The notes under the pieces are model-generated. The model had not been told where the DNA came from. It was given only the letters and a program-made list of their open reading frames with translations, and ran no database searches. A stretch of 1,334 bases of DNA from Escherichia coli (GTDB lineage: Bacteria > Pseudomonadota > Gammaproteobacteria > Enterobacterales > Enterobacteriaceae): the NCBI RefSeq assembly GCF_003334305.1, contig NZ_QOWS01000058.1, one strand, 5' to 3'. Positions within the stretch are counted from its first letter, which is position 1. Each line of letters opens with the position of its first letter. Positions 1 through 1,334 of the stretch are shown here, piece after piece. Both the position numbers and the translations under genes were made by a program.

Positions 1-1334
1 CCGGACGGGCTTCGCAGCAGCCGGGAGTATGATGAGAAGGGAAGGCTGACGGCGGAGACCTCGCGCAGCGGTGAGACAACGCGGTACAGCTATGATGACC
101 CGGCGAGTGAGCTGCCGACAGGGATACAGGACGCGACGGGCAGTACAAAACAGATGGCATGGAGCCGTTACGGTCAACTGCTGGCCTTCACGGACTGCTC
201 GGGGTACACGACGCGGTATGAGTACGACCGGTACGGTCAACAAATCGCCGTTCACCGGGAGGAAGGCATCAGCACTTACAGCAGTTATAACCCGCGTGGG
301 CAACTGGTCAGTCAGAAGGATGCGCAGGGGCGGGAGACCCGTTATGAGTACAGTGCCGCAGGCGACCTGACAGCAACGATATCACCGGACGGTAAACGCA
401 GCACCATCGAATATGATAAACGCGGGCGTCCGGTGAGTGTGACGGAAGGCGGTCTTACGCGCAGCATGGGGTATGACGCTGCCGGGCGCATCACCGTGCT
501 GACCAACGAGAACGGCAGCCAGTCCACGTTCCGGTATGACCCGGTGGACAGGCTGACTGAACAGCGCGGTTTTGACGGCCGGACGCAACGTTACCACTAT
601 GACCTGACCGGAAAACTCACGCAGAGTGAAGACGAGGGGCTTATCACCCTCTGGCACTACGATGCGTCGGACCGCATCACGCACCGGACGGTGAACGGCG
701 ACCCGGCAGAGCAGTGGCAGTATGATGAGCACGGGTGGTTAACCACCCTCAGCCATACCTGTGAAGGCCACCGCGTGTCGGTCCACTACGGCTATGACGA
801 TAAAGGCCGCCTGACGGGTGAACGGCAGACGGTGGAGAACCCGGAGACAGGGGAGATGCTGTGGGAGCATGAGACGGGGCATGCGTACAGCGAACAGGGG
901 CTGGCGACCCGTCAGGAGCCGGACGGTCTGCCGCCGGTGGAGTGGCTGACGTATGGCAGCGGTTATCTTGCGGGGATGAAGCTGGGCGGAACGCCGCTGG
1001 TCGAGTACACGCGGGACCGGCTGCACCGCGAGACGGCCCGTAGCTTCGGCGGGGCGGGCAGTACAGCGGGGTACGAACAGGCCACGGCGTACACCCTCAC
1101 AGGGCAGCTACAGAGCAGGCACCTGAACCTTCCGCAGCTTGACTGTGACTATACGTGGAACGATAACGGACAACTGGTGCGCATCAGCGGCCCGCAGGAG
1201 TGCCGGGAGTACCGTTACAGCGGCACGGGAAGGCTGACGGGCGTCCACACTACGGCAGCGAACCTGGATATCGATATCCCGTATGCGACGGACCCGGCAG
1301 GAAACCGGCTGCCGGACCCGGAACTGCACCCGGA
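1..1334 (+). CDS. Rhs-family YD-repeat protein, conserved core region (internal fragment; 5' and 3' ends lie outside the window); polymorphic toxin / T6SS-associated effector family
   Basis: Seen in sequence: frame +1 (codon 1 = nt 1-3) has no TAA/TAG/TGA across all 444 codons. The translation contains at least 10 canonical YD-repeat units (consensus roughly Y-D-x-x-G-R-L-T/I) at about 21-residue spacing, plus several degenerate ones, and GC-rich codon usage (ctg, ccg, gcg, acg, cgc, ggc). Established knowledge: this pattern is diagnostic of the Rhs / YD-repeat family, and from memory the translation is clearly homologous to, but not identical with, E. coli K-12 RhsA-type core sequence. The specific paralog cannot be assigned without a database search, so no gene symbol is given. 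Confidence 0.95.
25..831 (+). repeat. Protein-level tandem YD-repeat array within the Rhs core (about 21 codons / 63 nt per unit; degenerate at DNA level)
   Basis: Y of the YD (or YD-like) motif falls at codons 10, 31, 57 (degenerate RYGQL), 75, 96 (degenerate YNPRGQL), 117 (YS), 138, 158, 179, 200, 220, 241 and 265, i.e. nt 28, 91, 169, 223, 286, 349, 412, 472, 535, 598, 658, 721 and 793. Spacing is 20-24 codons between canonical units. Two further units lie at codons 384-392 (YTWNDNGQL, nt 1150-1176) and 404-413 (YRYSGTGRLT, nt 1210-1239). Confidence 0.8.

Follow-up and report, generated by a model that had tools for sequence, protein, structure and literature searches.

An internal fragment of a GC-rich chromosomal rhs gene of Escherichia coli, probably of the RhsG/H type, and its place in a multi-copy family

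The rhs gene containing the window

The window, by which we mean the whole 1334-nt stretch of E. coli DNA analysed here, lies inside a single rhs core gene. Frame +1 is free of stops throughout and the other five frames hold 3–29 stops; the minus-strand ORFs (45–116 aa) were treated as shadows of the kind that a GC-rich coding frame normally produces. The 444-aa translation corresponds to residues 492–935 of the 1420-aa 'RHS element core protein' WP_053266815.1 and matches positions 488–931 of the 1261-position NF041261 RHS_core profile (E = 2.3e-274). The window alone scores 913 bits against this profile because it is a fragment, and the full enclosing gene scores 2649 bits over profile positions 1–1261, above the curated cut-off of 2000. 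The enclosing gene has the features expected of an RHS_core member, namely YD repeats, a full-length profile match, and a core domain followed by a variable AT-rich tip and a small immunity-type gene downstream (the Rhs-associated core domain TIGR03696 is at aa 1183–1260 of the enclosing protein and is outside the window). Megablast gave full-length matches at 100% identity to 30 or more complete genomes of E. coli, all of them annotated as 'RHS element core protein', including strain AMSHJX01 in which the window is found at NZ_CP030939.1 2594792–2596125, inside the CDS at 2593319–2597581.

The window carries a degenerate array of YD repeats (see Table 1 for the coordinates of this and other features). 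The translation gave eight matches to Pfam PF05593 RHS_repeat at E ≤ 0.001 plus two weaker matches, and the TIGR01643 YD-repeat model matched with E = 2.8e-36. The YD units are mirrored at the DNA level by direct, imperfect repeats of 14–28 nt with 65–100% identity; no inverted repeats were found within the window, and no Rfam family was matched by either strand of the window at the gathering threshold.

Table 1. Features of the window and of the rhs loci compared with it in strains AMSHJX01 and 1943.
Feature	Sequence	Coordinates	Strand	Basis or remark
rhs core gene, internal fragment	Window	1–1334	+	Frame +1, open past both window ends
Mosaic segment	Window	1–164	+	Diverged (about 56–71%) from the AMSHJX01 dnaQ–fadE copy; sharp boundary at nt 164
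Segment 93.2% identical to the position-1 (RhsG-like) core of AMSHJX01	Window	165–1334	+	Pairwise comparison
Degenerate YD (RHS) repeat array	Window	28–1257	+	Pfam PF05593, TIGR01643
YD repeats (approximate)	Window	28–147, 163–267, 286–396, 412–519, 472–585, 598–699, 721–825, 1156–1257	+	
Left junction of the 563-nt deletion within the strain 1943 paralogue at position 1	Window (corresponding positions)	821–845	+	
First tandem rhs core	AMSHJX01, L001	3471–7680		Frameshifted
Full gene enclosing the window	AMSHJX01, L001	10528–14787		
Variable C-terminal tip	AMSHJX01, L001	14308–14787		160 aa
HExxH motif (HEFAH)	AMSHJX01, L001	14557–14571		
dsORF-h1	AMSHJX01, L001	14802–15251		
ISAs1-family (H-repeat) transposase genes or remnants	L001	8110–9505, 15512–16285		
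ISAs1-family (H-repeat) transposase genes or remnants	L009	15881–18117		
rhsD	AMSHJX01, L010	30615–34904		
First tandem rhs core	Strain 1943, L013	5474–9682		Intact, 1402 codons
dnaQ–fadE rhs pseudogene	Strain 1943, L012	16597–20260		Chimera

The yncH–pptA locus

Situated between yncG/yncH and pptA/nhoA, the window's gene occupies the locus that holds rhsE in K-12 and that Jackson et al. 2009 (PMC2935791) call 'position 6'. It is the second of two tandem rhs genes in a locus with the order VgrG, first rhs core, IS1 and ISAs1 remnants, two small ORFs, the window's rhs gene, dsORF-h1 and an ISAs1 remnant. The yncH–pptA locus of strain 1943, a second genome with a 100% match, is the same as that of AMSHJX01, with the upstream tandem core being frameshifted in AMSHJX01 and an intact gene in strain 1943. 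The gene found 11 nt downstream of the window's gene has the RefSeq product name 'RHS element protein dsORF-h1' and showed no family match. At both of the loci listed for them in Table 1, each rhs gene is followed by transposase genes, or remnants of them, of the ISAs1 family (H-repeat). The variable C-terminal tip of the window's gene, which includes an HExxH motif, has a weak match to Pfam Peptidase_M91 (E = 0.0045) and likewise weak PHROG matches, and no PDB relative or NCBIfam match was found for it.

We note that the AMSHJX01 region running from ynbA through yncG, the rhs locus and pptA to narZ (NZ_CP030939.1 about 2.53–2.61 Mb; L014 and L001) is in ascending K-12 order, and that regions at 1.2 Mb and 3.65–3.99 Mb (L007–L010) are in descending K-12 order. 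These opposite orders imply an inversion of more than 75 kb around the terminus-proximal region with ends that are not at the rhs locus, and the end of this apparent inversion was not met within 50 kb to the left of the locus.

Similarity to the shells of type VI secretion effectors

In the Rhs effectors of type VI secretion systems (T6SS), which are carried as a whole on VgrG, the repeats form a closed cocoon round a C-terminal toxin that is set free once autoproteolysis has occurred. The window aligns with the cocoon regions of the solved Rhs structures 8CP6 (Tse5), 8QJA and 7Q97 with E values of 1e-62 to 4e-44, and the 7PQ5 and 8QJB–D cores also align, with E values across the solved Rhs shells ranging from 1e-62 to 1e-28 and with almost the whole window covered. 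The YD shell is shared with Tse5 (8CP6), Photorhabdus Rhs1 (7Q97), the Salmonella bongori and other Rhs cores (8QJA–D) and P. protegens RhsA (7PQ5), and in the solved T6SS effectors the core domain precedes a variable tip, as it does in the window's gene. The solved effectors are from other species and have other toxin tips, whereas the E. coli protein here is known from sequence. By analogy with these structures we infer that the YD repeats of the window would build part of a beta-sheet cocoon enclosing the variable C-terminal toxin for delivery by the T6SS. Gene linkage agrees with such a role, as a VgrG gene heads the window's locus and the closest paralogue adjoins VgrG, Hcp and a complete T6SS cluster.

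Subfamily and distribution

Comparison of the window with K-12 rhs genes gave 71% identity to rhsA/B/C (with a longest exact run of 17 nt), 77% to rhsD and 82% to the part retained by the truncated rhsE. Because of this divergence, and with the dsORF-h1 annotation fitting, the core probably belongs to the RhsG/H-type subfamily (rhsGH is the third rhs subfamily described in PMC2935791); as is characteristic of RhsG/H, the core DNA is roughly 20–30% diverged from both the ABCF and DE subfamilies. It should be noted that the link to the published RhsH/dsORF-h1 is made by the RefSeq product name of the downstream gene. The GC-rich core, AT-rich tip, H-repeat/ISAs1 remnants and a downstream gene annotated dsORF-h1 agree with RhsG/H (Wang, Zhao & Hill 1998, as summarised in PMC2935791), and there was no substantive difference from the RhsG/H elements as they are summarised there. 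The gene also agrees with clade I, positions 6 and 1, of Jackson et al. 2009, in that it has the same yncG/yncH–pptA position and its closest paralogue is at position 1 (dnaQ–fadE), and the two core types found here in tandem at position 6 are as these authors describe for SE11 and Sh. sonnei. Everything we observed has already been described for E. coli Rhs elements.

When 5426 complete E. coli genomes were searched by megablast, 3712 of them matched the window family, at 10463 places in all. The number of places per genome has a median of three and a maximum of six, which may be an undercount as megablast may miss rhsA/B/C-type copies at about 71% identity. The best window match was at least 99% identical in 560 records and 90–95% identical in 1654. 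Four rhs genes are present at three loci in AMSHJX01 and three rhs places in strain 1943, and the expectation of several rhs copies per genome, stated before any search, was borne out.

The window sequence is essentially chromosomal. Only 12 of the 72,556 records in the plasmid collection match it, and these are mostly mislabelled Mb-size records or tiny contigs; several of the matching 'plasmid' records are 1.2–4.8 Mb long and are probably chromosomes or pieces of chromosomes filed as plasmids. One match was found in the phage collection, to Escherichia phage EC22.5-2 (OR845200.1), which is 1900 bp long and largely rhs core at 84.6% identity.

Base composition and the origin of the high GC content

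The sequence-only reading had described the window as GC-rich with a G/C preference at third codon positions, and had added that Rhs cores are more GC-rich than the host genome; measurement agrees on both counts. The window has a GC content of 62.7% (0.585 to 0.70 in sliding 200-nt windows) compared to a pooled 51.3% for AMSHJX01 (four 50-kb samples, 200 kb), the genome carrying the window at 100% identity which we used for background composition. Among 976 overlapping 1334-nt windows from these samples, 1.5% reach 62.7% GC, and all of these fall inside two other rhs cores of the sample. GC1/GC2/GC3 values are 63.1/50.5/74.8% for the window and 59.8/40.8/57.5% (SD 5.1/3.5/7.4) for a background of 100 ORFs outside rhs (each 250 aa or longer, taken from about 225 kb of the AMSHJX01 genome), giving differences of +3.3/+9.7/+17.3 points at codon positions 1/2/3 (z = +0.65/+2.7/+2.3), with 57% of the GC excess coming from the third position and 32% from the second. 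One of the 100 background ORFs ties the GC3 of the window (0.748), with the next highest at 0.70–0.73, and one exceeds its GC2. The GC-richness and third-position bias are real and unusual for the genome, but GC3 alone is not unique.

Similar values were found for other rhs genes, with the four rhs cores of AMSHJX01, which represent three subfamilies, having whole-gene GC contents of 60–61% and GC3 of 0.68–0.70, and the K-12 rhsA/rhsB/rhsC whole genes having 59–60% GC. At the AMSHJX01 yncH–pptA locus, GC (per 300 nt) is 0.60–0.71 in both rhs cores and 0.34–0.43 in the tips, with intergenic stretches at 0.27–0.48 and housekeeping flanks at 51.4%; in the window's gene the drop to tip values, from about 0.65, comes after the Rhs-associated core domain. 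The high GC of the window comes from two sources. The first is the strong G/C preference at synonymous third positions, which is common to all E. coli rhs cores and is usually read as a foreign or ancient signature. The other is the composition of the YD repeats, in which T, G, R, E, D and Y are abundant and K, I, N and F are scarce; the abundance of Gly, Arg, Thr and Ala and the scarcity of Lys, Ile, Asn and Phe raise GC at second positions. As the second-position excess is attributable to amino-acid composition, it is uninformative on horizontal transfer.

The high GC had also been taken to be consistent with horizontal acquisition, which the GC3 difference from background leaves plausible. 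A recent transfer from a GC-rich donor would in addition suit the sharp change in GC where the cores give way to AT-rich tips and flanks, and the ISAs1 and IS1 remnants in the locus, but we consider it possible rather than probable: second codon positions supply roughly a third of the excess, a native ORF has the same GC3, hardly any plasmid or phage record matches the core, and Jackson et al. (PMC2935791) conclude from the presence of positions 1, 5 and 6 in E. albertii that they are older than E. coli, in which case the acquisition would not be recent. An alternative is that the high GC3 is upheld by the family itself, by GC-biased gene conversion among the cores or by selection on mRNA or DNA, and is not inherited from a donor. 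Four cores from three subfamilies which are 70–77% identical to one another have kept the same composition despite an apparently long residence, and the mosaic segments described below show that exchange between copies occurs. Nonetheless, we hold this to be very unlikely, as the window has no sign of recent conversion and same-clade rhs genes in different genomes differ in base composition (Jackson et al., PMC2935791), a dissimilarity that fits host-driven drift better than an intrinsic bias. The broader proposition that the uniformly high GC3 of E. coli rhs cores is actively maintained, with GC-biased conversion as one candidate cause, and is not a fading foreign signature, likewise seems to us very unlikely; if it were true, the boundary at nt 164 and the tips common to several loci would be traces of the exchange involved.

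Same-genome paralogues and mosaic segments

Paralogues were found by navigating annotations from the K-12 flanking genes in AMSHJX01 and strain 1943, two genomes out of the 560 records with a window copy at ≥99% identity. The AMSHJX01 dnaQ–fadE copy is 93.2% identical to the window over nt 165–1334 and about 56–71% identical over nt 1–164, the tandem neighbour is 76.9% identical, and rhsD at ybbP–mnmH is 77.0% identical; the longest exact run inside the window is 77 nt with the dnaQ–fadE copy and 35 nt with the other two. Taken across the entire core, identity between the window's gene and this closest paralogue is 89.7%, and their longest exact run is 169 nt. The best paralogue in strain 1943 is also the dnaQ–fadE copy, which covers only nt 1–845 with 94.6% identity and a longest run of 206 nt. 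By way of a benchmark, K-12 rhsA and rhsB have 99.2% identity over 3713 nt and share exact stretches of 1811 and 1214 nt. The K-12 rhsA/rhsB/rhsC genes are like the window in protein family, core and tip architecture, and GC, but their hot-spot property rests on 97–99% mutual identity and runs of up to 1.8 kb, and the paralogues of the window fall short of this.

The 68 differences between the window and its closest paralogue (nt 165–1334) are distributed 11/12/45 over codon positions 1/2/3, and this third-position skew indicates purifying selection. They are evenly spread, with the longest run of 77 nt comparable to the 69 ± 16 nt obtained in shuffles (P = 0.26), and this test gave no sign of recent gene conversion between nt 165–1334 of the window and the AMSHJX01 paralogue.

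The nt 1–164 segment was found at 95–100% identity in 2522 places in 1968 genomes, with up to three places per genome. As it is kept in the dnaQ–fadE copies of other strains and has been swapped for a diverged version in AMSHJX01, the rhs cores are mosaic, and given its presence in two or three places of some genomes, some strains may carry a closer paralogue of the window. In the position-1 paralogue of strain 1943, the 563-nt deletion fuses two YD-repeat units, with some 10 nt of microhomology at the join. We also noted that this dnaQ–fadE rhs pseudogene is a chimera, with a 5' 2.4 kb of G/H type that is 92–94% identical, and a 3' part which together with ydcD is 96% identical to K-12 rhsE, a different locus in K-12. 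Recombination across 522 bp of 95%-identical rhs sequence has been recovered under selection in Salmonella (PMC3967940), and identities of 93–95% are therefore compatible with rare exchange. The boundary at nt 164 and the tips common to several loci show occasional historical exchange and not ongoing hot-spot behaviour.

The rearrangement hot-spot question

The name of the rhs family comes from the rearrangement hot spots of K-12 (Lin et al. 1984, as cited in PMC2935791), and the sequence-only reading had proposed that the window would, in a genome with more than one rhs copy, belong to a dispersed repeat of several kb that serves as a substrate for RecA. In that form the proposal was not supported by the paralogues in AMSHJX01 and strain 1943, which are 93–95% or about 77% identical to the window with exact runs of no more than 77–206 nt. 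Of the properties expected of a hot spot, two or more copies are present in each of these genomes, but kb-scale near-identity (about 97–99%) was not found and nor were rearrangement junctions in the element. K-12 flanking genes are present on both sides of all five rhs loci inspected in AMSHJX01 and strain 1943 (a small sample), and no synteny breakpoint was found at rhs among them. Jackson et al. (PMC2935791) state that genome comparisons had yielded no report of an rhs-mediated chromosomal rearrangement, and that cores cluster by position, indicating that recombination between loci is infrequent if it occurs at all.

A near-identical multi-kb repeat acting as an active RecA-dependent hot spot for duplications, deletions and inversions, and perhaps collapsed in assemblies, would be in keeping with the number of family members per genome, with the kb-long exact runs shared by K-12 rhsA and rhsB from which the family was named, and with the strong repeat that the locus does hold in its first core. 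It would also recall the 454 assemblies of K-12 in which contigs were broken by rhs elements (PMC3045373). We nevertheless judge it to be highly improbable for the window, given the modest identities and short runs of its nearest same-genome copies, the even spread of differences with no sign of recent conversion, the retention of K-12 flanks, and the lack of natural rhs-mediated rearrangements in the report of Jackson et al. (PMC2935791). The window is also identical in at least 30 independently finished genomes, which makes an assembly artefact unlikely, and a 93–95% paralogue is readily resolved in assembly, so the window is unlikely to collapse. As to the suggested check on copy number and assembly collapse, the family is multi-copy as anticipated, but the window's own paralogues are homeologous and collapse is not to be expected.

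We are confident that the window is an unexceptional stretch from the interior of a chromosomal rhs gene, with the RhsG/H type as its probable subfamily, which belongs to a multi-copy family and is at best a weak substrate for RecA. Its homeologous relatives in the same genome (one copy at 93–95%, and others at about 77% or 71%) would provide little opportunity for RecA-dependent unequal crossing-over. It follows that the 'rearrangement hot spot' label is not suited to every rhs core, a point that matters mainly for correct annotation, and that the recombination or assembly hazard of an rhs copy depends on the identity of its same-genome paralogues.

The strong repeat at the yncH–pptA locus is the neighbouring rhsD-like core and not the window, and this is where the hazard at the locus lies. 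In AMSHJX01 this first tandem core and rhsD have 96.3% identity and share an exact stretch of 1843 nt, and the two are about 1.09 Mb apart in opposite orientation, a pair comparable to K-12 rhsA/rhsB. The ISAs1-family (H-repeat) copies beside the rhs genes could also act as dispersed repeats themselves.
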